From Candidatus Blochmanniella floridana (GTDB taxonomy: Bacteria > Pseudomonadota > Gammaproteobacteria > Enterobacterales > Enterobacteriaceae), in the NCBI GenBank assembly GCA_000043285.1, contig BX248583.1:660001-692000 (forward strand): a DNA stretch of 32,000 nucleotides, written 5' to 3'. Below the pieces are notes generated by a model. That model was not told where the DNA came from, did no database searches, and worked only from the letters and a program-made list of their open reading frames with translations. A program made the position numbers and the translations under genes. Positions 7,464 to 29,172 of the stretch are shown here, one piece after another (positions within the stretch are counted from its first letter, which is position 1; each line of letters begins with the position of its first letter).

Positions 7464-7525
7464 AAAATAACAAAAACCCTTTCATCTGATTTCATTAAAT
7501 CAGATGAAAGGGTTTTTGTTATTTT
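7464..7525. terminator. perfect 29-bp-stem / 4-nt-loop palindrome overlapping the rpmE 3' end; probable rpmE terminator
   Basis: 7464-7492 AAAATAACAAAAACCCTTTCATCTGATTT is the exact reverse complement of 7497-7525. The 3' arm on the rpmE strand is U-rich. Confidence 0.7.
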
Positions 7526-7721
7526 TATTAAAACGTTTATTGAATAAATTCACCCGACCTCTAGTATCAATAATACGTTGTGTTCCGGTATAAAAAGGAT
7601 GACAAGCATCACAAACATCTAAATTAATGTTATGTTTTAATGTAGATCTTACATGAATAACATTCCCACAAGAACAGGATGCAGATATAACATTATACTG
7701 CGGATGAATATTTTTCTTCAT
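7500..7721 (-). CDS. rpmE: 50S ribosomal protein L31
   Basis: [20 protein letters not shown]...CHPFYTG...RFNKRF matches L31. The last ~8 codons (KNNKNPFI) lie inside the palindrome arm. Confidence 0.95.
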
Positions 7722-8320
7722 TTTATTAAACTCTAAAAAAATTAATACACACTAACAATAACATAATTAAATATTCAAATACACCACTTTTAAAATTGAA
7801 CTAAGAACACAATCATCCTATAACACATATCAACTATGATTTCACTCATCAAATTCAATTATACTACTTTTATTTAAACATACGGTATATATTAATCTTT
7901 TAAAATTAAAATCAATTCAACTATCAATTTATCCATAATCACATTACTAAATAATTTTAACTTTATTCAATACATCATAAATCTTTAAATATATCTATGC
8001 AACACCTCATTTCTTAATTTCAAATAAATACACCCTAACAATCCACACTCAACCAAAAAAAAATTAACAAAACTTATTTTAAAATATACTTACTCTTTTA
8101 ATAAACTATTAACACTAATATTACATTATTAAATTATTAATATATTTATTTTTAGTATATACAATAAAGACCCTACAGTTATTGATTTATAATTAATAAC
8201 ACATTAAAATAAAAAACTTCAAAATATAATAATTTTTAATTAAAATAATATAAATATAAGTTCAATCAAACCTATATATAACAATCATTATAACATAATT
8301 TCATACAATCAATTAACAAT

Positions 8321-9070
8321 ATGTCTACATGGATTTTAGGAAAAGTTCTTAACATAAGACACTGGACTAATCAATTATTTAGCATTACTATCAATGCTAA
8401 AATTGATACATTTATTGCTGGCCAGTTCTCCAAAATAGGGATAAAAATCAATAACAAAATCATACAACGAGCATATTCTCATCTTAATGCTCCAAATAAT
8501 CCAAATCTAGAATTTTACATCACCAAAGTAACATCTGGTACTTTAACTAATTTATTACACACCTTACAAATTGGAGATACCATAATGATCTCTAAACAAT
8601 CTTATGGTCAATTTATATTAGATAAAATACCAAATCATTCTAATTATTTATGGATGATCGCTACAGGCACAGGAATAAGTCCATATTTATCTATACTCGA
8701 AAGTTTTGACAAAAGATTATACCTTTTTTTAAAAATTATATTAATTCACGCTACTCGATATTCTAAAAACCTAAATTACTTACCTAAAATGACAGAATTG
8801 CAAAAAGCATATAATGGAAAATTACTTATACAAACTATCTTAAGTCGAGAATACTCTTTTAACTCAATGTATGGATATATCCCAACGTTAATAGAAAACA
8901 ATACCTTAGAAAAAAAAATAGGACTATATTTAAACAATAACAGTTACGTAATGTTATGTGGAAACCCTCAAATGATAACCGATACAAAAAAAATACTAAA
9001 GAAAAAATATAATATGAAAAATCATTCCCATAAAAATACAGGAAATATTATTCAAGAACGATATTGGTAA
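8321..9070 (+). CDS. fpr: ferredoxin/flavodoxin-NADP+ reductase
   Basis: 249 aa ORF collinear with E. coli Fpr (RAYSxxN, LWMIATGTGISPYLSIL, MLCGNPQM, C-terminal ERYW). Confidence 0.93.
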   Translation: MSTWILGKVLNIRHWTNQLFSITINAKIDTFIAGQFSKIGIKINNKIIQRAYSHLNAPNNPNLEFYITKVTSGTLTNLLHTLQIGDTIMISKQSYGQFILDKIPNHSNYLWMIATGTGISPYLSILESFDKRLYLFLKIILIHATRYSKNLNYLPKMTELQKAYNGKLLIQTILSREYSFNSMYGYIPTLIENNTLEKKIGLYLNNNSYVMLCGNPQMITDTKKILKKKYNMKNHSHKNTGNIIQERYW

Positions 9071-9259
9071 CTCATATTTTTAATTCAATGACCACATATA
9101 TAAAATTAATCTAAATATAATATATAAATAATCTTAATAAATATCCATAACTTATTATAAAATATAACTCATACTTCCAATTTAATATAAATTAAACAAA
9201 CAATATGATACACTATTTAACATAAACTTACTTAATCTAATAAATCATAATAATATTAT

Positions 9260-10048
9260 ATGAAAAACCTATCCATAATTGCTAATTGGAAATTAAACGG
9301 AAACAAAAATACAATAACAAATTCATTAATAAATTTAACCACTCAATTAACTAACATACCCCAATATATTAAAATAGCTATAGCACCCCCAATATTATAC
9401 ATTGACATGGTTAAAAACCATTTAACATCATATAATAATAAAACAATCGAATTATGTTCTCAAAACGTTGACATACACTTATCTGGAGCGTTTACAGGAG
9501 ATATCTCAGCATCTATGTTAAAAGACTTATCTGTAAAATACGTATTAATAGGCCATTCTGAAAGAAGAATATATCATAAAGAAAATAACTCATTAATAGC
9601 CCAAAAATTCTCTATAATAAAACAAACAGAACTTATTCCTATTCTATGTATCGGAGAAAATAAAGAAGAACGAGATTCCGGGTCTACACAATCAATTTGT
9701 ATACAACAAATTGATTCAATTATCAAATTAGTCGGTATAAAAGCATTTGAAAATACAATTATTGCCTACGAACCCGTATGGGCTATTGGCAGCGGATCTA
9801 GCGCATCCCCACGTAACGTACAATCAATTCATCAATTTATTCGCAACTACATCGCTCAATATGATAAAACCATAGCTAACCAAATATCAATTCAATATGG
9901 AGGATCTATAACCACCGACAATGTTTTAGAATTCATTACTCAAAAAGATATCGATGGAGTACTAGTTGGCTCTGCATCTTTAGATATAAGAAATCTTATA
10001 AAAATAATAAATCTATCATCAAATTTAATCAAAAAAACATACCAATAA
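9260..10048 (+). CDS. tpiA: triosephosphate isomerase
   Basis: 262 aa ORF with TIM motifs (ANWKLNG, IGHSERR, AYEPVWAIGSG, QYGGS). Confidence 0.95.
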   Translation: MKNLSIIANWKLNGNKNTITNSLINLTTQLTNIPQYIKIAIAPPILYIDMVKNHLTSYNNKTIELCSQNVDIHLSGAFTGDISASMLKDLSVKYVLIGHSERRIYHKENNSLIAQKFSIIKQTELIPILCIGENKEERDSGSTQSICIQQIDSIIKLVGIKAFENTIIAYEPVWAIGSGSSASPRNVQSIHQFIRNYIAQYDKTIANQISIQYGGSITTDNVLEFITQKDIDGVLVGSASLDIRNLIKIINLSSNLIKKTYQ

Positions 10049-10113
10049 TACTTATTAACAACCAAACTCATTCCTAAAAAACAATAACTACAATATTATA
10101 ATAAATAAAACCA

Positions 10114-11076
10114 TTAACACAACTTTTTAGCCGTTGTTAATAGATCTTGCCGAAATGAACGACGCATATACTTTGTAGCATCATTAATATCATGATGAAC
10201 TAACTTTTCATTTTCTATACCAATACAATGTCTACCATAACCTTTTAACAACAACTCAATAGAATACGCCCCCATTCTAGATGCCAAAATCCTATCATAT
10301 GCAACTGGCTTTCCCCCACGTTGAATATGACCTAAAACAGTAGCCCGGGTTTCTTTTCCAGTTTCATTTTCAATATACTGAGCTAAATCAAAAACATTAC
10401 AAATACGCTCAGTTATAGCAACTATAGCATGTTTTTTTCCTTTAGAAATATTTAACTTAATTTTATCTACTAAATCTTGCATTTGAAACTTTAATTCTGG
10501 AATAATAACAAACTCACAACCACCTGCTATAGCGGCAGATATAGTTAAATCACCACAATAACGACCCATTACCTCTACAATAGAAATACGTTGATGAGAT
10601 GAAGAAGTATCTCTTAATCGATCAATTGCCTCAATAATAGTTTCCAATGCTGTAAAATAACCAATAGTATAATCTGTTCCAGCTACATCATTATCAATTG
10701 TACCCGGAATCCCAATACAAGGACAACCCAAATCACTTAACCGTCTTGCTCCTATATAAGATCCATCTCCTCCAATTATCACTAAAGCATCAAGATGACT
10801 CTTACTTATATTATTCATTACTACAGATCTAATCATATCTTTTTTTAATTCAGGAAAACGAGAAGATCCTAAAACTGTTCCACCTTTATTAATTATATCT
10901 GACACACTACAATAACTCAATAACATCATACGATTCTGAAACAACCCTAAATAACCATCATATATTCCATATACTTCTATTCCTTCAGATAAACCAGCCC
11001 GAACTACTCCTCGAATAGCCGCATTCATTCCTGGAGAATCACCACCACTTGTTAACACTCCTATTTTCTTTATCAT
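10114..11076 (-). CDS. pfkA: ATP-dependent 6-phosphofructokinase
   Basis: Collinear with E. coli PfkA from [23 protein letters not shown] onward. I prefer the ATG at 11074-11076 over the TTG-initiated track start at 11094. Confidence 0.94.
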
Positions 11077-11410
11077 ACACAAAAATAATTTCAATATTTA
11101 CATTTTCTAAAAAATTATAATACATAAACATCTTTTAAACATTTATTAACATTACATGACTAATAGGTATACCATTTTCAAAAAATCAAACACAACATAC
11201 ACAAACATATTGCTTATATCATACCATACACATTACTCCCTATTTTTAAAATATCAATAAATTTATTTAATATATTCACATATACTACTATTAACATATT
11301 CAATATTAACTATTTATACTATACATCAAAAAACACATATATCATTATCTTCTACTAATCACAATGTGTATAAAAATCTAATTAAATAACTAATTATTTA
11401 TTAATAATCA

Positions 11411-12145
11411 TTATTGTACTAATCTAGCAGGCCTTCCAACCACCGTTGAATAAGGCGGTACTGAGTGTACCACAATAGATCCAGCACCAATTTTTGATCC
11501 ACAACCTATTTCGATATTACCTAAAATAATAGATCCTGCCCCAATTAAAACCCCTTTTTTTATTTTTGGATGCCGATTACCATCTATTTTTCCAGTACTT
11601 CCTAACGTAACAGACTGCATAATAGATACATTATCATCTATGACAGCAGTTTCTCCAATTACCACTCCAGTCGCATGATCTAACATAATTCCACAACCAA
11701 TTTTAGCAGCAGGATGAATATCTACATTAAAAATAATAGAAATACGATTATATAAATACATAGCCAATCCTGGATAATTATGATTCCACAACCAGTTCGT
11801 AATACGATATGCTTGTAAGGCATGAAATCCTTTTAAATACAAAAAAGGAGTGAGATATTTTTGTACAGACGGATCACGTAAACGTATCGTACAAATATCT
11901 TGAGCTGCCGCATCAATAATATCATTAGTTCTATATATATCTTTCAATATATCAATTAAATCAATCGTCATCATATCTAAATTATTTAACTTTTTAAATA
12001 ACAAATAAACTAAAGCATCTTGAAAATTATCATGATTCAATAAAGTTACATTTAAAAATTTTTTTAATATAGGCTCTGAATCAATCAACAATCTTGCCTC
12101 AATTATCATATTATTCCAAACTATATCAACTTTATTCGAAGACAT
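11411..12145 (-). CDS. cysE: serine O-acetyltransferase, about 29 aa shorter at the C-terminus than E. coli CysE
   Basis: 244 aa ORF collinear with E. coli CysE (IVWNN..., DIHPAAKIGxGIMLDHATGVV, hexapeptide repeats). It ends at PARLVQ just after the left-handed beta-helix. Confidence 0.93.
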   Translation of the reverse strand: MSSNKVDIVWNNMIIEARLLIDSEPILKKFLNVTLLNHDNFQDALVYLLFKKLNNLDMMTIDLIDILKDIYRTNDIIDAAAQDICTIRLRDPSVQKYLTPFLYLKGFHALQAYRITNWLWNHNYPGLAMYLYNRISIIFNVDIHPAAKIGCGIMLDHATGVVIGETAVIDDNVSIMQSVTLGSTGKIDGNRHPKIKKGVLIGAGSIILGNIEIGCGSKIGAGSIVVHSVPPYSTVVGRPARLVQ

Positions 12146-12230
12146 ATAATTCCCTATGTTCTATGATATCAAAATCAAATAAATAACAAATTAACATTCA
12201 AAATAGTATTTATTAATTATTAATAATATT

Positions 12231-13232
12231 TTATAAAATATATGAACGCCTTATTAAAGAATACACTGCTTCATGAACATTTTTATTTTCATATAATATT
12301 TTATATATTTGTTCCGTAATAGGCATAATTACCTTATATTTTACAGATAACATATATACTTCTTTAGTATTACTTATTCCTTCTATTAATTGCCCAATAC
12401 TTTTCTGTGCATAATCTACATGCATTCCTTGCCCCAACAACATACCAAAACGACGATTACGAGATTGATCATCAGTACAAGTTAATACTAAATCTCCTAA
12501 TCCAGCTAAACCAACAAATACATCAACAGAAATCGCGCCAATTGATTTACCTAATCGAATCATCTCCGACAAGCCACGAGTAATTAAAGCAGCTCGTGCA
12601 TTTGCTCCAAATCCCATACCATCAGAAATACCTACTCCAATAGCAATAACATTCTTTACTGCTCCTGCTATTTGCACTCCTATAACATCAGTAGTTTTAT
12701 ATACTCGTAAATTCTTAACAGAATACAATAAATGTTCTATATCATATCGAAATTTTATATCAGCAGATGCTAATTCTATTGCTGCAGGTAACCCTATAGC
12801 AAGCTCATGAGCAAAAGTTGGACCAGATATTACTGCACAAGGCACCTCCTTACCCAAAACATCATACACTACATCCTGCAATAACCAACCAGTTTTCGGC
12901 TCTAATCCCTTAGATGCAATAATAATACGAAAATTATTTTTTAAATTCAATCGTAATTTCAATAACACACAACGAAACACATGACTCGGTACAGCAATCA
13001 AAATATTTTGAGAAAAATCAGCAGCCACCGATAAAGATTCTTCCACATATAATGAATCAGGAAAAAAAACACCTGGTAAATCTACTTGATTAGATCGATC
13101 AATTTTAAGAATTTTTATATGTTGAGAATTATGACCCCATAATAAAACCATATTACCATGCTTCGCTATAGCAACAGCTATAGCTGTACCATATACCCCT
13201 GCTCCAATAACAGTAACACTAAATTTTTCCAT
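12231..13232 (-). CDS. gpsA: NAD(P)H-dependent glycerol-3-phosphate dehydrogenase
   Basis: 333 aa ORF with GAGVYGTA Rossmann motif and GpsA core (GPTFAHE, GAVKNVIAIG, RNRRFG). Adjacent to cysE as in E. coli. Confidence 0.94.
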   Translation of the reverse strand: MEKFSVTVIGAGVYGTAIAVAIAKHGNMVLLWGHNSQHIKILKIDRSNQVDLPGVFFPDSLYVEESLSVAADFSQNILIAVPSHVFRCVLLKLRLNLKNNFRIIIASKGLEPKTGWLLQDVVYDVLGKEVPCAVISGPTFAHELAIGLPAAIELASADIKFRYDIEHLLYSVKNLRVYKTTDVIGVQIAGAVKNVIAIGVGISDGMGFGANARAALITRGLSEMIRLGKSIGAISVDVFVGLAGLGDLVLTCTDDQSRNRRFGMLLGQGMHVDYAQKSIGQLIEGISNTKEVYMLSVKYKVIMPITEQIYKILYENKNVHEAVYSLIRRSYIL

Positions 13233-13674
13233 AACATCATAAATACATACAAAAATTTACTGTAATTTAACAACAATACATACAAACCTAATTAACTCAC
13301 TCTAAACATTTAATAAAACCATCTCATTCATTAAATCTCAAAATACTACTATCTAATTTTTAAACAGACAAAAACACAAAATTAACTCATCTTATTCAAC
13401 CAATACCATTCTTCCTATCACACTCTAACAACAATAAAATACCTAAATATACAACATATACACTTAACAAAACTACTATATTTATTACTTACATCTATAC
13501 CAATAGATACACATAACTAAATTCAATCATAAAAACAAAAATATCCTATACTATAATAATTATATTACCAAATACAAATTTTAAAATATAAATTTAATTT
13601 AAATTTCATATTCAACATTATACTAATATATTACCAAACCAAACATGTCGTAATCATTAAAAATAAAACCAACT

Positions 13675-13941
13675 TTATTTCAATAATTGTTCTAAATCCT
13701 TCCGATTCCTACCTAATTTTAATAAATCATCTGACCCTCCAACATGATTATTATTAATAAAAACCTGAGGAACTGTAACACACCCCTTTGATCTATTATA
13801 CATTTCCAAATATGCAGGATCCGATTTATCATCACTTAAAACAATTTCTTTAAATATTAAAGATTGTTCTACTAAAAAAAACTTAGCCCTATCACAATAA
13901 GGACAATTCTTTTTTGTATAAATAACAATATCATATGACAT
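13675..13941 (-). CDS. grxC: glutaredoxin 3
   Basis: 88 aa ORF with CPYC active site and TVPQVFI motif. Synteny with gpsA and yibN. Confidence 0.9.
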   Translation of the reverse strand: MSYDIVIYTKKNCPYCDRAKFFLVEQSLIFKEIVLSDDKSDPAYLEMYNRSKGCVTVPQVFINNNHVGGSDDLLKLGRNRKDLEQLLK

Positions 13942-13968
13942 AATAAAACCCTCACCTCATTACTAAAC

Positions 13969-14412
13969 CTATTTTTTCAAATTCAATAAAGGAAATCCAC
14001 CATCTACCCAAGAAGAAATACCCCCTTCTAATACATATACTTGCGTAAATCCTAATCTATTTAGATCTTTTTTAACTGAATACAAAAATCTGTCACTCGA
14101 ATTATACACAAGAATCAACGGATTATTCTTCAACCGACTACCCAAAATAAAATCATTCTCCTTTATATCTTTAATAGATATATTAATACTATTAACAATA
14201 TATCCAGAATAATACTCTTCCGAATTACGCATATCAACCACTACAGCACCTTTTTTATTTATTAAAAAAACTGCTTTCTCACACGAAATTTTAAATCCAC
14301 TATACATCCAATTCATATAAAAAATATACAATATTATAACTAACAAAAAACACCATACTAACATTAACACTAAATGGTTTTTACAAAACAACAACATTTC
14401 TTGAAAAAACAT
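13969..14412 (-). CDS. yibN: membrane-anchored rhodanese-domain protein
   Basis: 147 aa ORF with an N-terminal hydrophobic helix plus a rhodanese fold. Position next to grxC as in E. coli. Confidence 0.8.
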   Translation of the reverse strand: MFFQEMLLFCKNHLVLMLVWCFLLVIILYIFYMNWMYSGFKISCEKAVFLINKKGAVVVDMRNSEEYYSGYIVNSINISIKDIKENDFILGSRLKNNPLILVYNSSDRFLYSVKKDLNRLGFTQVYVLEGGISSWVDGGFPLLNLKK

Positions 14413-14679
14413 AATTACACCAAATATATTAACATAATATTATAATTATAATTTCTATAACTAAAACAATCTTCTTTACATTTTATCTAATACTTCACTG
14501 TTACAATATCATTTTAACTAAACAATAATTTTATTTTAACAAATAAAATTATAATATACTTACATATACATAAATTTTATGATAATTAATCAATACCAAA
14601 ACATTTTTAAACCAAAAAGTAACTTTTACATCCAAACAACAAAAAATTTAACAACAAACATAACTAATTAAAATAATAA

Positions 14680-14710
14680 TTGACAAAAACTTTTAATCCA
14701 GTAATACTAT
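14680..14710 (+). promoter_or_regulatory. possible sigma70 promoter for hldD-waaF-waaC (TTGACA at 14680-14685, weak -10 candidates at 14702-14710)
   Basis: A perfect -35 hexamer is rare in this G-poor stretch. The -10 match is weak (TAATAC or TACTAT). If used, the transcript would begin just upstream of the 72-nt palindrome. Confidence 0.25.
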
Positions 14711-14732
14711 ATCTATTATTATAATGGTGTTG

Positions 14733-14804
14733 ATTTATAGTGTAACAATACTCAACACCCGTGACTCCTTAGTCACGGGTGTTGAGTATTGTTACACTAT
14801 AAAT
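14733..14804. repeat. perfect 34-bp-arm palindrome (4-nt centre CCTT) with GC-rich core
   Basis: 14733-14766 ATTTATAGTGTAACAATACTCAACACCCGTGACT is the exact reverse complement of 14771-14804. It lies between divergent genes, 33 nt upstream of the hldD ATG, and has no flanking U-run. Confidence 0.95.
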
Positions 14805-14837
14805 AAATATAGATATATTAAATATATTATTTAGTTT

Positions 14838-15773
14838 ATGATTATAGTTACCGGAGGGGCAGGTTTTATTGGAAGAAATCTTATTAGAAGATTGAACAAA
14901 ATTCAAAGGACAGATATCTTGGTTGTTGATAATTTACGAAATGGAAAAAAATATAAAAATTTAGTAGGATTGCATATTTCTGATTACATAGATAAGCACT
15001 GTTTTATAAAAAGATTATTAAATAATTCTAATTATTTAAAAAATATAGAAGTAATATTTCATGAAGGAGCTTGTTCGAACACTTATGAATGGAATGGAAG
15101 ATATTTAATGAATAACAATTATCAATATTCTAAATCATTACTTAATTATTCTGTTGAAAATTCGATTCCTTTTATATATGCATCTTCTGCTTCTGTTTAC
15201 GGAAAAAATATTTATTCTTCTAATACATTTGATAATAATGAAAACCCTTTGAATATTTACGGTTATTCTAAATTTTTATTTGATCAATATGTTCGAAGTG
15301 TTTTAACAAAAGTTTCTTCTCAAGTTTGTGGATTGCGGTACTTTAATGTTTATGGACCTTATGAAAATCATAAAGGGGCTATGGCAAGTATTATTTTTAA
15401 TATATATCAAAAAATCATACATAGAAAAATCCCTGTTTTATTTATTGGTAGTAGAGATTTTAAACGAGATTTTATATATATAGATGATGTTGTAAATATT
15501 AATATATGGATGTGGGTTAATAAAATATCTGGTATTTTTGATTGTGGAACTGGTGTTTCTGAATCTTTTACATTACTCGCTGATATTGTGTTAAAATTTT
15601 TGAATTATGATTCAATTCAATATGTTCCTATGCCTTATAAAATAAGACAACATTATCAAACATTTACAAAAGCAAATATTTCTTATTTAAGAAATATAGG
15701 ATATGATTTTTCTTTTATTAAATTAAGTGAAGGTATTCATCGATATTTAAATTGGTTAATTCATAATAATTAA
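14838..15773 (+). CDS. hldD: ADP-L-glycero-D-manno-heptose 6-epimerase
   Basis: 311 aa ORF starting MIIVTGGAGFIGRNL (NAD Rossmann), with the YGYSK catalytic motif. Collinear with E. coli HldD/RfaD and followed by waaF-waaC. Confidence 0.94.
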   Translation: MIIVTGGAGFIGRNLIRRLNKIQRTDILVVDNLRNGKKYKNLVGLHISDYIDKHCFIKRLLNNSNYLKNIEVIFHEGACSNTYEWNGRYLMNNNYQYSKSLLNYSVENSIPFIYASSASVYGKNIYSSNTFDNNENPLNIYGYSKFLFDQYVRSVLTKVSSQVCGLRYFNVYGPYENHKGAMASIIFNIYQKIIHRKIPVLFIGSRDFKRDFIYIDDVVNINIWMWVNKISGIFDCGTGVSESFTLLADIVLKFLNYDSIQYVPMPYKIRQHYQTFTKANISYLRNIGYDFSFIKLSEGIHRYLNWLIHNN

Positions 15774-16872: not shown

Positions 16873-16892
16873 TTTTGGAAAAATAAGATTAT

Positions 16893-18181: not shown

Positions 18182-19472
18182 GTTTATATTATATATGTTT
18201 GTATATAATATTATTATATACAGTATTCAACCTATCATATGGATTAGATTATTGTGGCGTAGTAGATTTGTACCGACGTATCGTCAGAATTTAGGGGAAC
18301 GTTATGGTTTTTACTGTCATAAAAATATTAAACTTAATAGTATAATAATACATGCTGTTTCAGTTGGAGAAACTTTATCAGTAATACCGTTGATCTATAA
18401 ATTGCGAAAAAAGTATCCAGATGTTATCATTACACTCACTTCTATGACTCCTGCTGGTTTAGAAATGGCTTATAAGTTATCAGCATATTATCATCATGTA
18501 CAATGCATGTATCTTCCTTATGATTTATTTTTTTCTGTAAAACGATTTTTAAATTATATACAACCTAAATTAGTTATTATTATGGAAACAGAATTGTGGC
18601 CAAACTTAATCAATGAATTATATAAACGTCGAATTCCTGTAATTATTGCAAATGCTCGTTTATCAAATATCTCTTTTAAAAAATATAAAATATTTAATCG
18701 ATTTTTTTATTATATTATGCAACGTATAAATACCGTAGCTGTTCAAAGTAAAGAAGATGCATTTCGGTTTTTTAGTTTAGGATTTAAAAAAAATCGATTA
18801 AATATTGTGGGTAATTTAAAATTTGATGTTAGTTCTAACAAAATTAATCTAAAAAAAATTTTATCTTTTGAAAAAATTAAAATTGAAGGCCGTTTGGTTT
18901 GGATAGCTAGTAGTACTCATAAGGGAGAAGAAATAATATTATTAACAGTGTATAAACGACTTTTAAAATCTTTTTCTAATTTACTCTTAATTCTTGTACC
19001 TCGTCATTCTGAACGTTTTAGTGATGTGATTAATATTACTAAACATGCAGGATTTTCTTATGTTGTGAGAAGTAGTGGTGTTATACCTACTAAAGATATA
19101 CAGGTGTTTATTGTGGATACTATAGGAGAATTAATGTTTTTATATGAAATTTCAGATGTAGCATTTATTGGAGGAAGTTTAGTTCGACATGGAGGACATA
19201 ATCCATTAGAAGCCGCTGAGTATTCAATTCCTTTAATTATGGGTCCATATATTTTCAATTTTAGGGATATTTGTAATAAGATGTATAGTTTAAATGGTTT
19301 AATTAAAATTACTGATACGAAATCTCTAATTCATATTATGCATATGTTGTTAAAAAGTAAAGATCGTCGTTTGTATTATGGTGGTTGTGCTTTTAATGTA
19401 TTTAAGAAAAATCGAGGAGCTTCATATAAAATATTAAATATTATAAGTCACTATTTGGTAAAAAATTCTTGA
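18180..19472 (+). CDS. waaA: 3-deoxy-D-manno-octulosonic acid (Kdo) transferase
   Basis: 430 aa ORF collinear with E. coli WaaA (IQPIIWIRL...GERYGFY...SVGE...HGGHNPLEAA). An alternative start at the Met 5 codons downstream is possible. Confidence 0.93.
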   Translation: MFILYMFVYNIIIYSIQPIIWIRLLWRSRFVPTYRQNLGERYGFYCHKNIKLNSIIIHAVSVGETLSVIPLIYKLRKKYPDVIITLTSMTPAGLEMAYKLSAYYHHVQCMYLPYDLFFSVKRFLNYIQPKLVIIMETELWPNLINELYKRRIPVIIANARLSNISFKKYKIFNRFFYYIMQRINTVAVQSKEDAFRFFSLGFKKNRLNIVGNLKFDVSSNKINLKKILSFEKIKIEGRLVWIASSTHKGEEIILLTVYKRLLKSFSNLLLILVPRHSERFSDVINITKHAGFSYVVRSSGVIPTKDIQVFIVDTIGELMFLYEISDVAFIGGSLVRHGGHNPLEAAEYSIPLIMGPYIFNFRDICNKMYSLNGLIKITDTKSLIHIMHMLLKSKDRRLYYGGCAFNVFKKNRGASYKILNIISHYLVKNS

Positions 19473-19530
19473 ATATTATTTCATTGATTTAATTTTTAAA
19501 TCAATGAAATAATATTCAAGAATTTTTTAC
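19458..19530. terminator. perfect 35-bp-stem / 3-nt-loop palindrome between convergent waaA and rpmG; probable bidirectional terminator
   Basis: 19458-19492 is the exact reverse complement of 19496-19530. It contains the waaA stop (19470-19472) and the rpmG stop (19527-19529), and is followed by T7 on the + strand. Confidence 0.75.
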
Positions 19531-19688
19531 TTTTTTTCTGTATATGTAATATGTTTTTTAATAATAGGATCAAACTTTTTTAATTTTATTTTCTCTGGAT
19601 GAGATCGTTTATTTTTTGTGGTAGTATAAAAATGTCCATTACCAGTAGAAGAAAATAAATAAATTATTTCTCGAGTTTCTTTAGCCAT
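19527..19688 (-). CDS. rpmG: 50S ribosomal protein L33
   Basis: Not in the ORF track (53 aa). Manual translation gives [53 protein letters not shown], which matches L33. Directly downstream of rpmB. Confidence 0.93.
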
Positions 19689-20902: not shown

Positions 20903-21102
20903 TTTGGGTACTTAATATCATGTACTTTGATAGTAGTTTAATTATTCTTTTATATTTACTATTATGGTTATAATTGATAAATTATTTTATGGTAATAATA
21001 AATTTGTATATCCAAAATTAGTTTGAGTATATTTAACACAAATTATTTGGATTTTATAGTTAAATAAAAATGTATAAGAATAAATATAGATAAATTGAAA
21101 TT

Positions 21103-21975
21103 ATGATTAATAGTATGACTGCTTTTTCTAGATATGAAGTTGTTTATTTATGGGGAAGTGCAGTGTGGGAAATTCGTTCTATGAATCAACGATATTTAGA
21201 TATTTGTATTACTATACCTAAGAATGTCAATGATTTGTTTTGGATAATTAGAAAAAAAGTTAAGAGTTCTCTTACAAGAGGTAAAATAGAATGTCATTTA
21301 CAACTTAATATTAATGTAGATAGTATTAATACTGTTGTGTTTGATAATAAATTATTTTCTTTTTTACTTGATAAAATCAAATATATTAAATCACAAATTA
21401 ATGAAGGGGAAATTGATCTTGTAGAAATTTTATCTTTTCCAGGAATAATTTCATATAAGCATAATAATGATGTATATCAAATAAATAATGAATTATTAGC
21501 TGCTTTTGAACTAACATTATATCAATTAATACGTAATAGAGAAAAGGAAGGTAGTTTTTTAAAGGATAATGTAGTTAATCGGTTATTACAAATTACTACA
21601 GTAATCGATGAAATTCAGAAATATATTCCTCAAATATTACAACAAAAGCGTAAAAAACTTTTGGATTATATTCAGGGTTTTTGTATTAATTTTGATACTA
21701 GTCGATTAGAACAAGAATTATTGTTAATGACACAAAAAATTGATGTTTCAGAAGAAATAGATCGTTTGAAAATTCATGTTGAATCTATGCAAAATCTTTT
21801 ATCTCAAAAAATAAATAAACCTGTTGGAAGACAGTTAGATTTTATTACTCAAGAATTACAAAGGGAGGCTAATACTTTGTCGTCGAAATTAATAGATGCT
21901 TATGTGACAGGTTTGGTTATTTCTTTAAAGATATTAATTGAGCAAATTCGTGAACAGGTTCAAAATATTGAGTAA
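21103..21975 (+). CDS. yicC: YicC-family stress-induced protein (endoribonuclease family)
   Basis: 290 aa ORF collinear with E. coli YicC (MINSMTAF..., EEIDRLKIHV, GRQLDFITQELQREANTLSSK, C-terminal IREQVQNIE). Confidence 0.9.
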   Translation: MINSMTAFSRYEVVYLWGSAVWEIRSMNQRYLDICITIPKNVNDLFWIIRKKVKSSLTRGKIECHLQLNINVDSINTVVFDNKLFSFLLDKIKYIKSQINEGEIDLVEILSFPGIISYKHNNDVYQINNELLAAFELTLYQLIRNREKEGSFLKDNVVNRLLQITTVIDEIQKYIPQILQQKRKKLLDYIQGFCINFDTSRLEQELLLMTQKIDVSEEIDRLKIHVESMQNLLSQKINKPVGRQLDFITQELQREANTLSSKLIDAYVTGLVISLKILIEQIREQVQNIE

Positions 21976-22047
21976 TGAATAATAATTATTGTTAATTATG
22001 TTTCTTTGATAATGGTGTAATTGAGTATAAATTATTTTATTAAAGAT

Positions 22048-22109
22048 TATTTTTAAAATTTATTTATATTTATTTTTATAAAAATAAATATAAATAAATT
22101 TTAAAAATA
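22048..22109. repeat. 62-nt perfect, loop-less, pure A/T palindrome
   Basis: 22048-22078 TATTTTTAAAATTTATTTATATTTATTTTTA is the exact reverse complement of 22079-22109. Confidence 0.9.
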
Positions 22110-22159
22110 TAACAAAAATAAGTTTTTTTGTATAAAAAAACTTATTTTTGTTATTTTTT
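22109..22159 (+). terminator. intrinsic terminator downstream of yicC: perfect 21-bp stem, GTAT loop, T5 run
   Basis: 22109-22129 ATAACAAAAATAAGTTTTTTT is the reverse complement of 22134-22154. Followed by TTTTT. An A-run upstream makes it potentially bidirectional. Confidence 0.75.
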
Positions 22160-22522
22160 ACTAAAAATAATCAAAAAAATATTATAAAACATAAAAAAAT
22201 ATCTCAAAATGACTTTATTTGACTGATTTCTTTTTTCAATCTTAGAATATTTCAAATTATTTAAAACTTAGATAGAATAAAATTGTTAATAATCTATATG
22301 TATATATTATTAATTTGTAACATCCTAATTTAGGAGGATAAAATTATAACAATTTTTTTTAAAATAATTTAGTTCTATTTTAGATACAAAGTTGCTTAAG
22401 GCTATTAGTTACATAACATTACATTAATTAAATTATTAGTTTAAATAAATAACACCGTAATTGTATTGTAATAAAAATAGTATTTTATAATTGTTGTTGA
22501 TTTAATGTAGAGATATATAATT

Positions 22523-22957
22523 ATGAACAGATTAACAGATATTGCAAATATGGTAGAATCTTTGTCTCGGATTTATCATCGTCTTCGTAAAGAAATTAAT
22601 GGTCAGTTAATTAATGAAGGCCTATCTATGTCTAAAATGAAAATTTTACATCTTATAACTACTGGTAAAACCAGTGCAACAGATATTAAAAATTATATGG
22701 GATTTTCATCAAGGACAGTAGTTACTGTACTTGATGCGTTGGAAAAAGATGAAATGTTACGTCGACAACAAAGTCTTACAGATCGTCGTGTAAAGTATGT
22801 ACATATCACAAAAAAAGGACAGGAGAAATTGATTATAGCTAAATGTACATATAATATTATTTTAGATCGTATATTTGCTCCTTTATCTGATGTACAATTA
22901 AAGAATTTTTATGAAGTATGTAATTTATTGGAAATCCAACAAAAAATAGCACAATGA
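22523..22957 (+). CDS. MarR-family winged-helix transcriptional regulator
   Basis: 144 aa. Family pattern visible: HTH region (SATDIKNYMGFSSRTVVTVLDALEKDEMLRR) followed by a wing (LTDRRVKYVHITKKGQEKL). Composition matches the neighbouring genes. No E. coli counterpart at this syntenic position. Confidence 0.75.
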   Translation: MNRLTDIANMVESLSRIYHRLRKEINGQLINEGLSMSKMKILHLITTGKTSATDIKNYMGFSSRTVVTVLDALEKDEMLRRQQSLTDRRVKYVHITKKGQEKLIIAKCTYNIILDRIFAPLSDVQLKNFYEVCNLLEIQQKIAQ

Positions 22958-23073
22958 TATTTAGATATATTATAAGTAGATCATATAAAATGAATAAATA
23001 TAACAATACTATATATGATATACTATAAAATATATAATAATTTATTATTCAATAATTGGATTGTAAGTACTAT

Positions 23074-23125
23074 TAAATACAAACTACTAACTATCCATAT
23101 ATGGATAGTTAGTAGTTTGTATTTA
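23074..23125. repeat. 52-nt perfect loop-less palindrome between the MarR-family gene and gmk
   Basis: 23074-23099 TAAATACAAACTACTAACTATCCATA is the exact reverse complement of 23100-23125. No U-run follows. Confidence 0.9.
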
Positions 23126-23157
23126 CGTAATATGTAAACGATAGATAATATTTGATA

Positions 23158-23790
23158 ATGAAAAAGTATTCTGGATTATTAGGTATAATATCTGCTCCTA
23201 GTGGAGCAGGGAAGTCTACTTTAATAAATGCTTTACAAAAAAATGATTCAATTTTACAAATAAAATTATCGATTTCTTATACTACTCGTAAAAAGAGACC
23301 TGGAGAAGTACATGGAAAAGATTATTATTTTATTTCTATAGAAGAATTTCAAAATATGATTAATCAGAATATGTTTTTAGAATATGCAAAGGTTTTTAAT
23401 CATTATTATGGCACTGAAAAAAATAGTATTAAATTAATGCTGAATTCTGGAGTACATGTAATTTTAAATATAGATTGGCAAGGAATGAATCAAATTCGTA
23501 ATAAAAAATTGGATTTTTATACTATCTTTATTTTACCACCATCTCAAAAAGAATTAGAAAAAAGATTAAGATTTAGAGGATTAGATACTGATCAAGTTAT
23601 TTTTGATAGAATGAAACAGGCAATGAATGAAATTAGTCATTGTAAAGAATATGATTATATTATTATAAATGATGATTTTAATATTGCATTAATATATTTA
23701 CAGTCTGTAATTTTATCTAAACAATTAAAAATTGATTATCAGGAATATCATAATAGTAATTTGATTAATAATTTGTTATCATGTCTATAA
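23158..23790 (+). CDS. gmk: guanylate kinase
   Basis: MKKYSGLLGIISAPSGAGKSTLI P-loop, YTTRKKRPGEVHGKDYYF, collinear with E. coli Gmk. I prefer the ATG at 23158 over the TTG at 23152. Confidence 0.93.
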   Translation: MKKYSGLLGIISAPSGAGKSTLINALQKNDSILQIKLSISYTTRKKRPGEVHGKDYYFISIEEFQNMINQNMFLEYAKVFNHYYGTEKNSIKLMLNSGVHVILNIDWQGMNQIRNKKLDFYTIFILPPSQKELEKRLRFRGLDTDQVIFDRMKQAMNEISHCKEYDYIIINDDFNIALIYLQSVILSKQLKIDYQEYHNSNLINNLLSCL

Positions 23791-23826
23791 TGAATAGTTA
23801 TAGTTTTATGTATGTAAAATAATAAA

Positions 23827-24009
23827 ATGATTGAAAAAAAAATAGTAGAAGAAATCAATAGTCGATTTGATTTAATATTGGTTGCATCTAAATACGCTAG
23901 ATCTATACAACAAAAAGAAAATTCGATTCAATTATCATCATGTAAACATAAATGTACTGTAATTGCTTTGCAAGAATTAGAAAAAAGTATGATTAATATA
24001 GATAAATAA
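23827..24009 (+). CDS. rpoZ: RNA polymerase omega subunit, shortened (60 aa)
   Basis: NSRFDLILVASKYARSIQ...CTVIALQELEKSMIN matches the conserved N-terminal core of RpoZ. Position after gmk as in E. coli. Confidence 0.85.
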   Translation: MIEKKIVEEINSRFDLILVASKYARSIQQKENSIQLSSCKHKCTVIALQELEKSMINIDK

Positions 24010-24079
24010 TTAATATGTTTAATAATTATATAGTATTAAATACGATATAATATGTATATAAAGGTAATGTTTGGTATTT

Positions 24080-25501
24080 ATGAATGTTGATTATTTTATT
24101 TCTTTTATAAATAAAAATAAAGTAAAGTTTATTGATTTACGTTTTACTGATATAATGGGTAAAGAACAGCATTTTACTATTCCACAATCACAGATTGATA
24201 ATCATTTTTTTGAGAATGGTAAAGTTTTTGATGGTTCTTCTATGGTAGGTTGGAAAAATGTTCATGAATCGGATATGATACTGATTCCAGATTTAACTAA
24301 TGATCATATAATAGTTGATCCATTTTATCAAGATACTACTGTAATATTACGTTGTGATGTACTTGACCCTCATAGTATGCAAAATTATGATAAAGATCCG
24401 AGATATATATCAAAAAAATCAGAAAAGTTTTTACAAGATTCTGGTATTGCTGATTTCGCTATGTTTGGTCCAGAACTAGAGTTTTTTGTATTTGATGATG
24501 TTAGATTTAAAACATCTATGTCAGGTTGTCATGTAATGATTGATGATCCAGAAGCATCATGGAATAGTGATAAAGTTTATTTTTACGGAAATAAAGGACA
24601 TAGACCAAAAATAAAAGGTGGATATTCTCCAGTTCCACCGATTGATTCTTCTCAAAATTTAAGGTCTATGATGTCTATTATGATGGAAAAAATGGGATTA
24701 ATTGTAGAAACTCATCATCATGAAGTAGCAACTGCTGGTCAAAATGAAATAATAACTAGATTTAATTCTTTAACTAGGAAAGCAGATGAAGTACAAATAT
24801 ATAAATATATAGTACATAATGTTTCGAATAAATTCGGAAAAACTGCTACTTTTATGCCAAAGCCTATTATAAAAGATAATGGTTCAGGTATGCATTGCCA
24901 TATATCTTTGTATAAGAACAAAGTTAATTTATTTTCAGGTGATCAGTATGGAAATCTTTCGGAAATTGCTTTATTTTATATAGGAGGTATTTTAAAACAT
25001 ACTAAAGCATTAAATGCTATAACTAATCCTACTACCAATTCATATAAACGATTAATCCCTGGTTATGAAGCTCCAACATTTTTAACTTATTCTTTATCTA
25101 ATCGTTCTAGTGCTATTCGTATTCCTGCAATAATTAATAATAATCCAAATTTATGTAGAATAGAAGTTCGATTTCCTGATCCATCAGCTAATCCTTATTT
25201 GGCTTTTCCTGCGTTATTGATGGCTGGTATAGATGGTATTATTAATGAAATCCATCCTGGAAATCCTGTAAATAAAAATTTATATACTTTATCTGATTTA
25301 GAAAAAGAACATACATTGTACACGTCTCAATCTTTAAATGAATCATTACAATATTTAAGTGAAGATTATGAATTTTTAATAAGAAATAATGTGTTTAGTA
25401 AAAATTTTATTGATTCGTATATATTAATACATAAAAAAATGGATAGCTTAGTAAGATCAGTTCCACATCCGATGGAATTTGAATTATATTATAGTATATA
25501 A
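24080..25501 (+). CDS. glnA: glutamine synthetase type I
   Basis: Collinear with E. coli GlnA ([57 protein letters not shown]). The ATG at 24080 is preferred; the TTG at 24071 is an alternative. Confidence 0.94.
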
Positions 25502-25636
25502 ATATATATACGTATAAATATATTATATAAGTTATGTATTTTATTAATAATATAATTGTGTACTGTATTATTTTATAGATCTAAATAATAGTATAGGTTG
25601 TATAATATATAAGGTAATATCATGATATTAATCTAT

Positions 25637-28468
25637 TTAATGAGCTTGTTCCCAATTTTTTCCGACTCCGATATCTACTTTTAAGGGTACATCTAAAATA
25701 AAACATTCTTCCATTAATTTTTTAATTTGTTTTATCGCAGTATCTATAAAATTATTTTGTACTTCAAATACTAATTCATCATGTACCTGCATAATCATCT
25801 GTACTGGAATATCATCTTGTTTTAACCAGTAATTAATAGATATCATTGCTTTCTTAATTATATCTGCAGCACTTCCCTGCATAGGAGCATTTATAGCTGC
25901 TCGTTCTGCTCCTTTTTTTTTGGATAGATTTTTAGAATAAATGTTTGGTAAATATAATTTTCGACCTTCTAAAGTTGATACATACCCATATTTATAGACA
26001 TTATCTTTAATGTGTTGTATATATTGCATGACTCCAGGATAACGTTGAAAATAACGATCGACATATTTTTGTGCTTCATAACAAGTTACTGATAATTGTT
26101 TTGATAGTCCAAACGCGCTCATTCCATAAATTAATCCAAAATTTATTGTTTTAGCTTGATGTCTTTGTTCATTTGTAACTAAGTTTAATGAAGTAACGAA
26201 TATTTCAGAAGCAGTTGTGGTGTGAATATCTTTTCCAGATAAAAAATCATTAATTAATTTAAAATCACGAGATAAATGAGCCATAATTCTTAATTCTATT
26301 TGAGAATAATCTGCGGATACTATTACAGAATGGGAGGGAGCAATAAAAGCTTGACGTATTTTTCTACCATCATGATTTCTATTTGGAATATTTTGTAGAT
26401 TTGGGTTAGCGGAAGATAATCGACCGGTAGCAGTTCTAGTTTGGTTATATGATGTATGAATTCGATTTGATTCTGTATTAACCATAGATATTAATTTATT
26501 AGTGTATGTTGATTTTAATTTAGATAAACTTCTATATTTTAAAATAATTTTTGGTATAGGATATTTATGAGATAATTTTTTTAATACTTCTTCATTTGTT
26601 GAAGGAGATCCACTTGGAGTTTTTTTTAAAATAGGTAATTTTTGTTTTTTATATAATATTTCTTGAAGTTGTTTAATAGAATCAAGGTTAAAGGATGTTC
26701 CTGCTAATTGGTATGCTTGGTTTTGTAATGTATTTAAATGAACATTTAGTTCCATTGAATAAGAACACAATAATGTTTTATCAATTAAAACACCATAACT
26801 TTCAATATGAGCAAGAATAGAAATTAATGGTATTTCTATTTCTTGAAATATTTTTTTTAACTTATCATTTGAGTAAAGTTGAGGCCATAAAATTTGATGT
26901 AAATCAAATATGGCTAGTATTAATTGGATTGCATATAATGATTCTTGATATATATTTTTTATTTCTTTAACTATATAATTATTATAATTATCATAAGATT
27001 GTTGAAAATTTAAAATAGAATTAAATGTTTCTTTGTTTAGAAAACGTTTTATATTTTGATAGTTAGTAGTTCCATATAATATGTAAAATTCTAATATTAC
27101 ATCAAATATTTTTCCAGATAAATTAATATTATGTCGTTTCAGTAAAGAATAATTAAATTTCATATTTTGTCCAATTTTAACAACTGCAGGATTTTCTAAA
27201 ATTGGTTGTAGATTTAGTAATACATTTTTGAGTGAGAGATAATTTTTATTATTGTACTGGTTTGGTATTTGAATATTGTTACTAATAGGTATGTATATAT
27301 ATTGATTGATATATATATTATATAAGGATAAACATAAACCAAGGATGTTAGCTGTAAAAATATTAGAATTATCTGAATGTATATTAAGAATGAGATGGTT
27401 TTTATGATAATTTTGTTTTATCCAATGTTTAAGGGTAGCAGTGTTATATATAATGTAATTTGAATTATTATTTAGTTTTAAATTGTTGTATGAGGAATTT
27501 TGTATTATTTTTGTATTTGCATGTTTGGTATATGCAGTAGATATTATTTTTTTTTCATATTTATTTGTATTATTCCATTTTCCTGATTGTAAGTCTGTTA
27601 ACCAAGTATTAAATTCGTATTGTGTAAATAGTAATATTAGATCTTGAGTATTAATTTCTTGTATTAATAGTTTATAATCAGATTCTTGTAAAGGAACATC
27701 TATTTTAATGGTTGCTAATTTGTAACATAAAAATGCTAGTTCTTTATTAATTAGTAGTGCTTGATATATCTTTTTTCGACCACGAATATTTAATTGTAAA
27801 ATATTATTTAAGTTTTGATATAATATATTTAAGTTGCCTATTTGATTAAGTACAATTTGGGCTGTTTTTTTTCCAATACCAGGTACACCAGGGATGTTAT
27901 CAGCTCGATCTCCAACTAATGCTAAATAATCTGCGATTAATGTTGGCGGTACTCCAAACTTTTTTTCTACTTCTGTGGGATTAAGCATAATATTTGACAT
28001 TGTATTAATTAGAATAATGTTAGAAGATACAATTTGTGCCATATCTTTATCTCCAGTACTAATTAATACTGTTTTATTGAGTTGTGCATAAAAAGTAGCT
28101 AAAGTTGCTATTACATCATCTGCTTCTACATTAGGTATATTTAATACAGAAATACCCATTGCTTTTATAATTTTATGAGTAGGAATGATTTGGATAGATA
28201 AATCATCAGGAATTTTAATACGATTAGATTTATATTGTTTGAATAGATCATCGCGAAATGTTTTTCCTGATACATCAAAGATTACTGCCATATGTGAAGG
28301 TTGATATCGAGTTATTAAGCTTTTGATCATACTTATCACTCCATATATTACCCAAACAGGTTGACCATTTTGTGTAGTTAAAGGTGGATATGCATGATAT
28401 GCTCTGTACATATAGAAAGATCCGTCTACTAAAATTATTGGATTATGTATTGTAGATTGTGAGTTCAT
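25637..28468 (-). CDS. polA: DNA polymerase I (5' nuclease and polymerase domains intact; 3'-5' exonuclease motifs degenerate)
   Basis: 943 aa. N-terminal LVDGSFYMYRAYHA, polymerase motifs A (DYSQIELR), B (AKTINFGLIYG) and C (QVHDELVFE) are present. The central domain is Asn/Ile/Tyr-rich and divergent. Confidence 0.95.
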   Translation of the reverse strand: MNSQSTIHNPIILVDGSFYMYRAYHAYPPLTTQNGQPVWVIYGVISMIKSLITRYQPSHMAVIFDVSGKTFRDDLFKQYKSNRIKIPDDLSIQIIPTHKIIKAMGISVLNIPNVEADDVIATLATFYAQLNKTVLISTGDKDMAQIVSSNIILINTMSNIMLNPTEVEKKFGVPPTLIADYLALVGDRADNIPGVPGIGKKTAQIVLNQIGNLNILYQNLNNILQLNIRGRKKIYQALLINKELAFLCYKLATIKIDVPLQESDYKLLIQEINTQDLILLFTQYEFNTWLTDLQSGKWNNTNKYEKKIISTAYTKHANTKIIQNSSYNNLKLNNNSNYIIYNTATLKHWIKQNYHKNHLILNIHSDNSNIFTANILGLCLSLYNIYINQYIYIPISNNIQIPNQYNNKNYLSLKNVLLNLQPILENPAVVKIGQNMKFNYSLLKRHNINLSGKIFDVILEFYILYGTTNYQNIKRFLNKETFNSILNFQQSYDNYNNYIVKEIKNIYQESLYAIQLILAIFDLHQILWPQLYSNDKLKKIFQEIEIPLISILAHIESYGVLIDKTLLCSYSMELNVHLNTLQNQAYQLAGTSFNLDSIKQLQEILYKKQKLPILKKTPSGSPSTNEEVLKKLSHKYPIPKIILKYRSLSKLKSTYTNKLISMVNTESNRIHTSYNQTRTATGRLSSANPNLQNIPNRNHDGRKIRQAFIAPSHSVIVSADYSQIELRIMAHLSRDFKLINDFLSGKDIHTTTASEIFVTSLNLVTNEQRHQAKTINFGLIYGMSAFGLSKQLSVTCYEAQKYVDRYFQRYPGVMQYIQHIKDNVYKYGYVSTLEGRKLYLPNIYSKNLSKKKGAERAAINAPMQGSAADIIKKAMISINYWLKQDDIPVQMIMQVHDELVFEVQNNFIDTAIKQIKKLMEECFILDVPLKVDIGVGKNWEQAH

Positions 28469-29120
28469 AATATAAAACTAAATAATATATTGTTTAATGT
28501 AGATTAAATAGGAGGATGTATTCATATAAATAGCTAACAACACTAAATTCTATGTTATCACTAAAATTAGTAGAATAAAATATTGAGTAATAATTTTTTT
28601 TGTAAGTAGTGTTAATAAATCAAAGAATTATGTAATATATGTATGTATGGAAGATAAATTTGATTTATATTTTGCATTATGTATTAACCGTGAACAAAAA
28701 GAAAGGAATTGTTTTAATAAAATTAATAGCTTTTTTTTGATTTATAAATTAAAAATTGATTAGTATACTATTCTAATAATGTTGTATGTTTTATATTCAT
28801 TATTAATTGCATGAGTTTACTTCGGGTATATTTTTAGTATAAAGAGAATATTATCTGAGCATAGTTATAAATAAAAATAGAAACTTATTCAATCTGATAT
28901 CCATAAAATTATTATTATAATATCGCAAGTATATAGTAATTATTATATTTATGTAGCTTTAAGTAATTAATATGATTTTTTATAAATAGAGCATAGATTG
29001 GATAATTTTTATTGCATTGTATTAAAAATTTATAAAATGTTTGAATTAATAACCATGAGTTTAATAAAAAAGAGAAAATTTTAGTAAATTACAAACATAT
29101 ATAGTGGATTGAGGTTAATA

Positions 29121-29172
29121 TATTGATTTTTCTATGATTCATATACTTATATGAATCATAGAAAAATCAATA
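29121..29172. repeat. perfect 25-bp-arm palindrome (2-nt centre) downstream of ubiD
   Basis: 29121-29145 TATTGATTTTTCTATGATTCATATA is the exact reverse complement of 29148-29172. About 127 nt past the ubiD stop. Confidence 0.9.

Follow-up and report, generated by a model that had tools for sequence, protein, structure and literature searches.

A 32,000-nt stretch of the genome of Candidatus Blochmanniella floridana (hereafter B. floridanus; contig BX248583.1, positions 660,001–692,000; this entire stretch is referred to below as the window) contains seven palindromes, P1–P7 (Table 1), whose arms are long and perfectly complementary. The waaA product encoded in the window matches that of B. 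floridanus, a species with a genome of 705,557 bp, at 100% identity. The questions addressed here are how these palindromes arise and what keeps the arms perfect. All seven lie inside intergenic spacers or straddle the spacer edges, and all are accommodated in 6 of the 27 spacers of at least 40 nt in the window, within intergenic DNA with a G+C content (GC) of 18%. A preliminary description of the same sequence had listed their coordinates and mismatch-free arms, both of which are reproduced exactly by a rescan of the window. It had also placed the palindromes at gene junctions, which is indeed the case, but several of the neighbours that it named have to be corrected: P1 is located between rpmE and metB, P2 between yibN and hldD, P3 between waaA and rpmG, P4 and P5 after yicC, and P6 between a MarR-family gene and gmk, whereas the ubiD/polA junction given for P7 stands.

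Table 1. Coordinates and structure of the seven palindromes and of two genes whose ends lie in palindrome arms (positions in the window).
Feature	Position	Strand	Structure	Predicted folding energy
P1	7464–7525	minus	29-bp arms, perfect; loop 4 nt	RNA −41 kcal/mol
P2	14733–14804	no strand	34-bp arms, perfect; loop 4 nt; 12 G-C pairs; no T-tract	RNA −59/−56 kcal/mol
P3	19458–19530	no strand	35-bp arms, perfect; loop 3 nt	RNA −42/−41 kcal/mol
P4	22048–22109	plus	31-bp arms, perfect; loop 0; A/T only	DNA −21.6 kcal/mol, z −8.6
P5	22109–22154	plus	21-bp arms, perfect; loop 4 nt; TTTTT directly 3'	
P6	23074–23125	plus	26-bp arms, perfect; loop 0; no T-tract	−33 kcal/mol
P7	29121–29172	minus	25-bp arms, perfect; loop 2 nt; no T-tract	−29 kcal/mol
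rpmE (ribosomal protein L31)	7500–7721	minus	3' end forms one arm of P1	
rpmG (ribosomal protein L33)	19527–19688	minus	stop codon in the outermost bases of the P3 right arm	

The right arm of P1 (7497–7525) corresponds to the 3'-terminal 8 codons of rpmE (minus strand) plus its TGA stop, and the left arm, its reverse complement, lies in the rpmE–metB spacer, upstream of metB; the core of the stem is CCC/GGG, and its base carries an A-tract/T-tract. P3 takes up all of the DNA that separates the stop codon of waaA (plus strand, 19470–19472) from that of the convergent gene rpmG (minus strand, 19527–19529), also with an A-tract/T-tract at the stem base, and both P1 and P3 are flagged as terminator-like on both strands. 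P2 occupies the spacer between the divergent genes yibN (minus strand) and hldD (plus strand), ends 33 nt from the hldD ATG and extends imperfectly to 14716–14821, with 51-nt arms that are 86% complementary. P4, which begins 72 nt past the stop of yicC, and P5 adjoin each other 3' of yicC, with base 22109 common to both, and the P5 arm reaches 26 bp if one mismatch is allowed. P6 is separated by 116 nt from the stop codon of the MarR-family gene upstream and by 26 nt from the gmk start codon downstream. P7 is found 126 nt past the stop of ubiD (minus strand), within the 830-nt ubiD–polA spacer, upstream of polA; an 11-mer of its left arm, TATGATTCATA (29133–29143), is repeated directly 95 nt downstream (29228–29238), and this second copy can pair with the right arm of P7 to form an alternative, weaker hairpin (−20.6 kcal/mol). 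The claim that the palindromes share no obvious sequence holds apart from a 13-mer, AAAATAACAAAAA/TTTTTGTTATTTT, an A/T-tract at the stem bases of P1 (7464–7476) and P5 (22145–22157), which is the only sequence common to any two palindromes when the arms in the window are compared.

Chance is excluded as the origin of the seven palindromes, as the preliminary description had maintained from base composition. Over the 201 paired positions there are no mismatches and no G:T pairs, and the arm lengths in the window are bimodal, with seven arms of 21–35 bp and the next-longest perfect small-loop arm at 12 bp. The longest arm is 10–13 bp in 40 dinucleotide shuffles of the whole window and does not exceed 15 bp in 200 spacer-by-spacer shuffles of the 18%-GC intergenic DNA. 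Predicted RNA folding of the palindromes yields −29 to −59 kcal/mol, compared with a mean of −9.2 kcal/mol (standard deviation 5.3) for 90-nt segments and −23 to −25 kcal/mol for the three tRNAs of the window; the corresponding DNA folding energies are −18 to −38 kcal/mol. Inverted repeats of 70–83% in the rpmB–dut spacer do not go beyond chance, and with a DNA fold z of −0.16 they are not demonstrable as decayed palindromes.

The existence of such palindromes is not new. A survey of the B. floridanus, B. vafer and B. pennsylvanicus genomes with EMBOSS palindrome (arms of at least 30, gap of at most 20, at most 3 mismatches) reported 20, 10 and 6 long palindromes, respectively, 34 of the 36 being at least partly intergenic and those of B. 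floridanus spanning 62–104 bp overall, with the long palindromes of B. vafer checked by read inspection (Williams & Wernegreen 2010, BMC Genomics 11:687, PMC3017870). In an EMBOSS-like re-implementation, P1, P2, P3, P4 and P7 fall within these settings, P5 and P6 are shorter and otherwise alike, and all seven are at least partly intergenic in a Blochmannia genome. The palindromes of the window are thus members of the class already reported, i.e. the same objects in the same genome. The 2010 report gave counts and lengths, without arm-to-arm co-evolution, positional turnover or a templated origin, and proposed a role in transcription control or mRNA stabilization such that selection must maintain the palindromes. 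From the published count (20 per 705.6 kb), 0.9 palindromes are expected in the 32-kb window, against the five that fall within the settings (Poisson probability of ~0.002, obtained post hoc and with our own re-implementation of the criteria), which suggests clustering near the putative replication origin and the published deletion hotspot. This putative origin is placed, in both B. floridanus and B. vafer, at a GC-skew shift between yibN and hldD, with no dnaA boxes, and the deletion hotspot adjoins it (PMC3017870).

The palindromes are a feature of the genus. The orthologous 20–21-kb region was taken from ten other Blochmannia genomes (11 loci with the window, 244 kb; among the locus labels used below, L081 is B. 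vafer, L086 is CP010049, L087 is B. pennsylvanicus and L089 is B. chromaiodes), and 80 waaA loci of other gammaproteobacteria (1,508 kb) served as the outgroup baseline. Perfect arms of at least 20 bp number 25 in the 11 Blochmannia loci and 1 in the 80 outgroup loci, and are absent from the two AT-rich symbiont loci of the outgroup (26% and 22% GC), a small sample. Each of the ten relatives has at least one perfect palindrome of at least 18 bp in its spacers. A mismatch-tolerant scan of the 11 loci (match +1, mismatch −3) yields ~40 small-loop palindromes, just 3 of which contain a single mismatch, and the decayed versions differ by indels or many mismatches (the inner stem of L088, the coaD–rpmG palindrome of L087 and the B. 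vicinus group upstream of dfp). Among close relatives, the palindromes are either perfect or badly decayed. At −30 to −60 kcal/mol, a G:U pair or one mismatch should be tolerable in an RNA stem, and the scarcity of near-perfect intermediates therefore argues for either a process at the DNA level or a very young age.

The positions of the palindromes recur between lineages but the sequences do not. Recurrent sites are found 26–40 nt before gmk (B. floridanus, B. vafer and CP010049), 72–82 nt after yicC (B. floridanus and CP010049), ~455 nt before the MarR-family gene (CP097752 and the B. vicinus group), beside the rpmG stop (B. floridanus, CP097752 and B. chromaiodes), in the yibN–hldD spacer (B. 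floridanus and CP097761), and 10–19 nt before dfp, in a divergent spacer (the B. pennsylvanicus group), where the longest palindromes of the relatives are located. The palindromes ahead of gmk are unrelated, with 25-bp arms at 40 nt in B. vafer and 23-bp arms at 32 nt in CP010049, and an equally unrelated palindrome with 24-bp arms lies 82 nt past yicC in CP010049 (L086). The B. vafer palindrome before gmk (L081 15445–15499, CCTTCCCCCGGGG...) has 14 G-C pairs out of 25 in a 25%-GC genome, which hints at selection for stability at this site.

The evolution of the arms can be followed in the relatives. The nearest relatives of B. floridanus are the other Blochmannia (~60% amino acid and 62–70% nucleotide identity in waaA), and a metagenome scan with HldD returned no close relative of this species; three other Blochmannia subgroups, in contrast, are alignable in the spacers (waaA identity of 84–89%). 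Upstream of dfp, the perfect arms are 45 bp long in L082, 37 bp in L087 and 39 bp in L089, and these palindromes are distinguished by a single substitution pair and by 1-nt indels, each on both arms (for example, GATTTAA/TTAAATC versus GATTTTAA/TTAAAATC). The extension from 37 to 45 bp in L082 corresponds to the replacement of the left flank by the reverse complement of the conserved right flank. At the same site, the B. vicinus group has an imperfect quasi-palindrome with a conserved left arm, and in L083 (~13160–13250) the palindrome is gone as a single clean gap of ~86 nt, the L082 counterpart of which is a 93-bp perfect palindrome (12377–12469) that the sister and outgroup lineages keep, either as such or in a degenerate version.

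In the yicC–marR spacer, L083 has perfect 37-bp arms and three sister genomes keep a 30/42 quasi-palindrome; an exact 20-mer in the left arm of L083 is the reverse complement of the right arm of the sisters, and an exact 16-mer in its right arm is the reverse complement of their left arm. Judging from these exact matches, the arms of L083 derive from the quasi-palindrome of the sisters. The B. vicinus group has a different perfect palindrome in this spacer (24–31-bp arms), formed by the same ancestral sequence as that of L083 but centred ~25 nt to the right. One mirrored substitution pair distinguishes L084 from L090 in yicC–marR, and three mirrored pairs distinguish L084 from L088 in dut–yicC. 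In the coaD–rpmG spacer, L089 has CTCCTAC/GTAGGAG, compared with CACAC/GTGTG in L087 and L082, while the flanks of L087 and L089 differ by 3–5% at the three other loci measured. Altogether, the differences within five orthologous sets from the relatives amount to at least 8 substitution pairs and no fewer than 4 indel columns, each of which is mirrored; the counter-examples of decay are an unmirrored homopolymer indel in L088 and the coaD–rpmG palindrome of L087. The signature of template switching, i.e. a derived state that is more complementary and carries clustered copies of the partner arm, is seen in the 37-bp arms of L083, in the 37 to 45 bp extension in L082 and in the 21-bp arms of L082. 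These changes are the marks expected of quasi-palindrome correction by template switching (PMC7202029, PMC8794818), the two arms in effect evolving in concert.

In the window, the coding ends included in the arms resemble those of other Blochmannia. The tail encoded by the coding arm of P1, KNNKNPFI*, is homologous to KNNDNAFLSKFNKSK of B. vafer, and the waaA coding end in P3 (VKNS) resembles the waaA C-termini of the relatives. Given this likeness to the gene ends of relatives, the coding arm of P1 looks ancestral, and the spacer arms of P1 and P3 look like copies. The rpmG product is 53 aa long in B. floridanus compared with 55–57 aa in 10 of the 10 relatives, the shortest of the 11 orthologues by 2–4 codons, and rpmE ends 7 residues short of its B. 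vafer orthologue. The stop codons of rpmE and rpmG lie inside palindrome arms, as if palindrome formation trimmed the gene ends.

The mechanism favoured here is template switching during replication (quasi-palindrome correction), which probably accounts for both the formation and the perfection of the arms. The nascent strand in a hairpin-prone, AT-rich spacer would fold back and copy the partner arm, creating or lengthening an exact reverse-complement arm; later template switches would spread a new mutation from one arm to the other, so that the two arms would change together and remain free of mismatches until an indel escaped correction or the whole palindrome was deleted. The seeds would often be hairpins at gene 3' ends, which would place P1, P3, P5 and probably P4 where transcripts could be stopped or stabilized in both directions, and the final codons of rpmE, waaA and rpmG would in this manner have become part of two palindromes. 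By extension, the same process would operate in B. floridanus. Of the three readings offered in the preliminary description, the evidence favours this one most, i.e. intrastrand templated correction as the reason why the structures stay perfect, but that evidence comes from close relatives and not from this genome; the evidence for the mechanism being comparative and drawn from other lineages, confidence in it is moderate.

Quasi-palindrome mutation by template switching is documented (the Ripley model; E. coli lacZ reporters; PMC7202029), and template switching has been described to create and maintain RNA hairpins (Monttinen & Loytynoja 2022, PMC8794818). These systems resemble the Blochmannia palindromes in that imperfect repeats are perfected by clustered templated changes, with multi-base compensation and perfect stems that arise in one event, but the stems there are short (2–10 bp, in RNA genes) or belong to engineered reporters, whereas the Blochmannia arms, as judged by sequence comparison, are perfect over 21–45 bp, lie in natural spacers and are enriched ~hundredfold in one genus. 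In chloroplast inverted repeats and human Y-chromosome palindromes, kilobase-long arms are homogenized by recombination. The two arms evolve in concert in these cases as well, but the Blochmannia arms are tens of bp long, which, together with the lack of a listed recA, makes a replication-based route more likely than recombination. In E. coli, SbcCD is established to attack hairpins, and ExoI and ExoVII limit template switching. The published ortholog table has no entries for recA, mutS, recJ, xseA, sbcC, dnaA and priA in any of the three genomes, and rho, pnp and rne are listed (PMC3017870). Loss of most of the genes that restrain hairpins and template switching could plausibly raise the rate of switching and let palindromes persist.

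Several observations weigh against this mechanism. With the nearest relative at ~70% waaA nucleotide identity, the templating signature would have to be extrapolated to the seven palindromes from other lineages. Alignments of AT-rich, low-complexity spacers are soft, and the exact-match segments alone are firm. The composition-matched outgroup consists of just the two AT-rich symbiont loci, and sbcB (ExoI), an exonuclease said to limit template switching, is retained in Blochmannia (gene table, PMC3017870). In addition, the arms are less diverged than the flanks (3–5% versus 3–22%) in 4 of the 7 comparisons with differences, the stems of some relatives are G+C-rich in a 25%-GC genome (14 G-C pairs in B. 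vafer), and three distant lineages have a palindrome at an equivalent position before gmk; these last three features point to a contribution of selection as well.

Selection could even be the whole explanation if the palindromes were RNA hairpins, i.e. terminators, attenuators or stem-loops protecting mRNA ends, preserved by purifying selection and two-step compensatory mutation with no templated DNA process. This possibility, proposed in 2010 (PMC3017870), seems unlikely, but part of the evidence is in its favour. P1, P3, P4, P5, P6 and P7 each come shortly after a gene in the sense orientation, and a T run is present within or after the 3' side of the stem in P1, P3 and P5, at gene 3' ends; P3 and also P1 and P5, with an A-tract upstream and a T-tract downstream of the stem, resemble bidirectional Rho-independent terminators, readable on both strands, and some copies may act as such. 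The retention of rho, pnp and rne, the G+C-rich stems, the arms that are often less diverged than the flanks and the recurrence of unrelated palindromes before gmk and after yicC in distant lineages are all in line with a role in RNA; the recurrence before gmk, combined with the G+C-rich B. vafer stem, points to a retained role, either in terminating transcription from the gene upstream or in a leader stem. Typical terminator stems, however, are 5–14 bp long, G+C-rich and often imperfect, and the stabilities of the palindromes are above those typical of intrinsic terminators. The palindrome arms, unlike these, are perfect over 21–35 bp at 0–35% G+C, P4 has no G-C pair, being all A/T, P2, P6 and P7 are without a T-tract, and a consistent T-tract after the stem was not found in the 26 palindromes checked. 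Moreover, P2 is not downstream of a gene but, like the dfp palindromes, lies between divergent gene starts. Given the placement of P2 and the missing T-tracts, terminator function explains a subset at best; the over-built terminators or insulators envisaged in the preliminary description are plausible for P1, P3 and P5 and do not explain P2. Also against RNA-level selection, a single mismatch or G:U pair should be nearly neutral at −29 to −59 kcal/mol, yet there are none among the 201 pairs here and almost none in the relatives, and mirrored indels, multi-base clusters and shifted centres of symmetry are hard to obtain by independent point mutations.

Template switching or fold-back repair might also have acted only once, at the time of gene deletion, leaving scars that mark the junctions and are not maintained afterwards. 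P3 is the exact stop-to-stop gap where coaD was lost, next to a truncated rpmG, P7 lies in a spacer where B. vafer has dsbA, and five of the 20 published palindromes fall in the window, beside the deletion hotspot. The spacers of P2, P4, P5 and P6, however, have the same flanking genes in 10 of the 10 related loci, palindromes occur at the coaD and dfp junctions of relatives that still have these genes, the spacers of B. floridanus from which secB and dfp were lost contain no palindrome, and the continuing mirrored change in sister genomes indicates maintenance and not a single event; remnants of dsbA, coaD, dfp and secB are not detectable in the window. The link to gene-loss junctions, which the preliminary description drew for every palindrome, fits P3 and perhaps P7 and is weak overall, so that one-off scars are an improbable explanation. 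Somewhat more doubtful still is action at the DNA level, in the form of cruciforms or symmetric binding sites, with P2 as part of a dnaA-independent origin or as an outward-facing promoter pair. The cumulative GC-skew minimum of the window (14776) does fall inside P2, in the very spacer (yibN–hldD, 14629–14871) to which the origin has been assigned in a genome with no dnaA or priA in the gene table (PMC3017870), and each P2 arm contains an outward-facing GTTACA hexamer with a −10-like hexamer 17 nt beyond. But any C-rich left arm by construction gives its palindrome a local skew minimum at the centre, and gene orientation changes at P2 too, two points that weaken the coincidence, and promoter-like matches in the AT-rich window are at the chance level (196 found versus 183 expected), so that the promoter scan is uninformative. 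Orthologous sites have unrelated sequences, and this speaks against binding by a conserved protein; in B. vafer, the skew minimum (L081 position 5719) likewise falls in this spacer, which is free of significant palindromes, and P2 was rejected as a conserved origin element for lack of a counterpart there. A MarR-type operator was dropped because typical half-sites are far shorter than these arms and because species that share the conserved MarR-family gene have completely different palindrome sequences. Finally, it is hardly credible that the palindromes are copies of a mobile or repeated element (of the REP, BIME, RPE or MITE type) or assembly artefacts, for which nothing speaks beyond the palindromic shape. 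REP/BIME and Rickettsia palindromic elements are likewise intergenic, form hairpins and can sit at gene ends, but they are multi-copy families with a consensus, whereas the arms of the Blochmannia palindromes are similar neither to each other nor to the rest of the window, save for the one 13-mer, and a repeated mobile element was rejected for want of a consensus and of other copies in the window. Rfam at gathering thresholds detects nothing in the window but three tRNAs, 10 genome records, each deposited separately, have comparable palindromes at the orthologous sites, and the long palindromes of B. vafer were verified in reads (PMC3017870).

If replication template switching is the prevalent process, Blochmannia may be a natural system in which such switching is unusually frequent, although this broader proposal is more tentative than the mechanism itself. 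In such a system, 20–45-bp palindromes would be created, lengthened, homogenized and deleted, gene 3' ends (rpmE and rpmG) would be rewritten, the events would be concentrated at a relocated, dnaA-independent origin, and maintenance would be mainly a matter of mutational conversion and not of selection. Arms maintained by conversion would be the opposite of the selection argument of the 2010 report (PMC3017870), and the palindromes lend themselves to a clean test, in nature, of what keeps long stems fully paired. Were templated copying responsible, compensatory changes and a perfect stem would not by themselves be evidence of a selected structure in such genomes, and the birth, growth and deletion of palindromes would add to spacer turnover and gene-end trimming in reduced symbiont genomes. 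P2, where the skew reaches its minimum in a genome that lists neither dnaA nor priA, is a concrete site at which to look for the origin, albeit one that is not conserved in B. vafer.

A shorter hairpin is found within a coding sequence. Inside the MarR-family gene (22523–22957), the 14-bp arms CATCAAGGACAGTA/TACTGTACTTGATG (22708–22737) pair with one mismatch; this hairpin is perfect in the B. pennsylvanicus group and is kept in 11 of the 11 genomes with a few mirrored synonymous changes, and it may simply reflect the symmetric peptide T-V-V-T-V. Elsewhere in the window, a cluster of tRNA genes (Trp, Asp and Ala) occupies 3974–4314 on the minus strand, next to a 792-nt spacer (4315–5106) with neither a palindrome nor an open reading frame of at least 80 aa. 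Between gmk and glnA (23845–23994), a short frame that falls below this 80-aa cut-off matches RpoZ of B. pennsylvanicus (39% identity over 51 residues, E = 2e-5).

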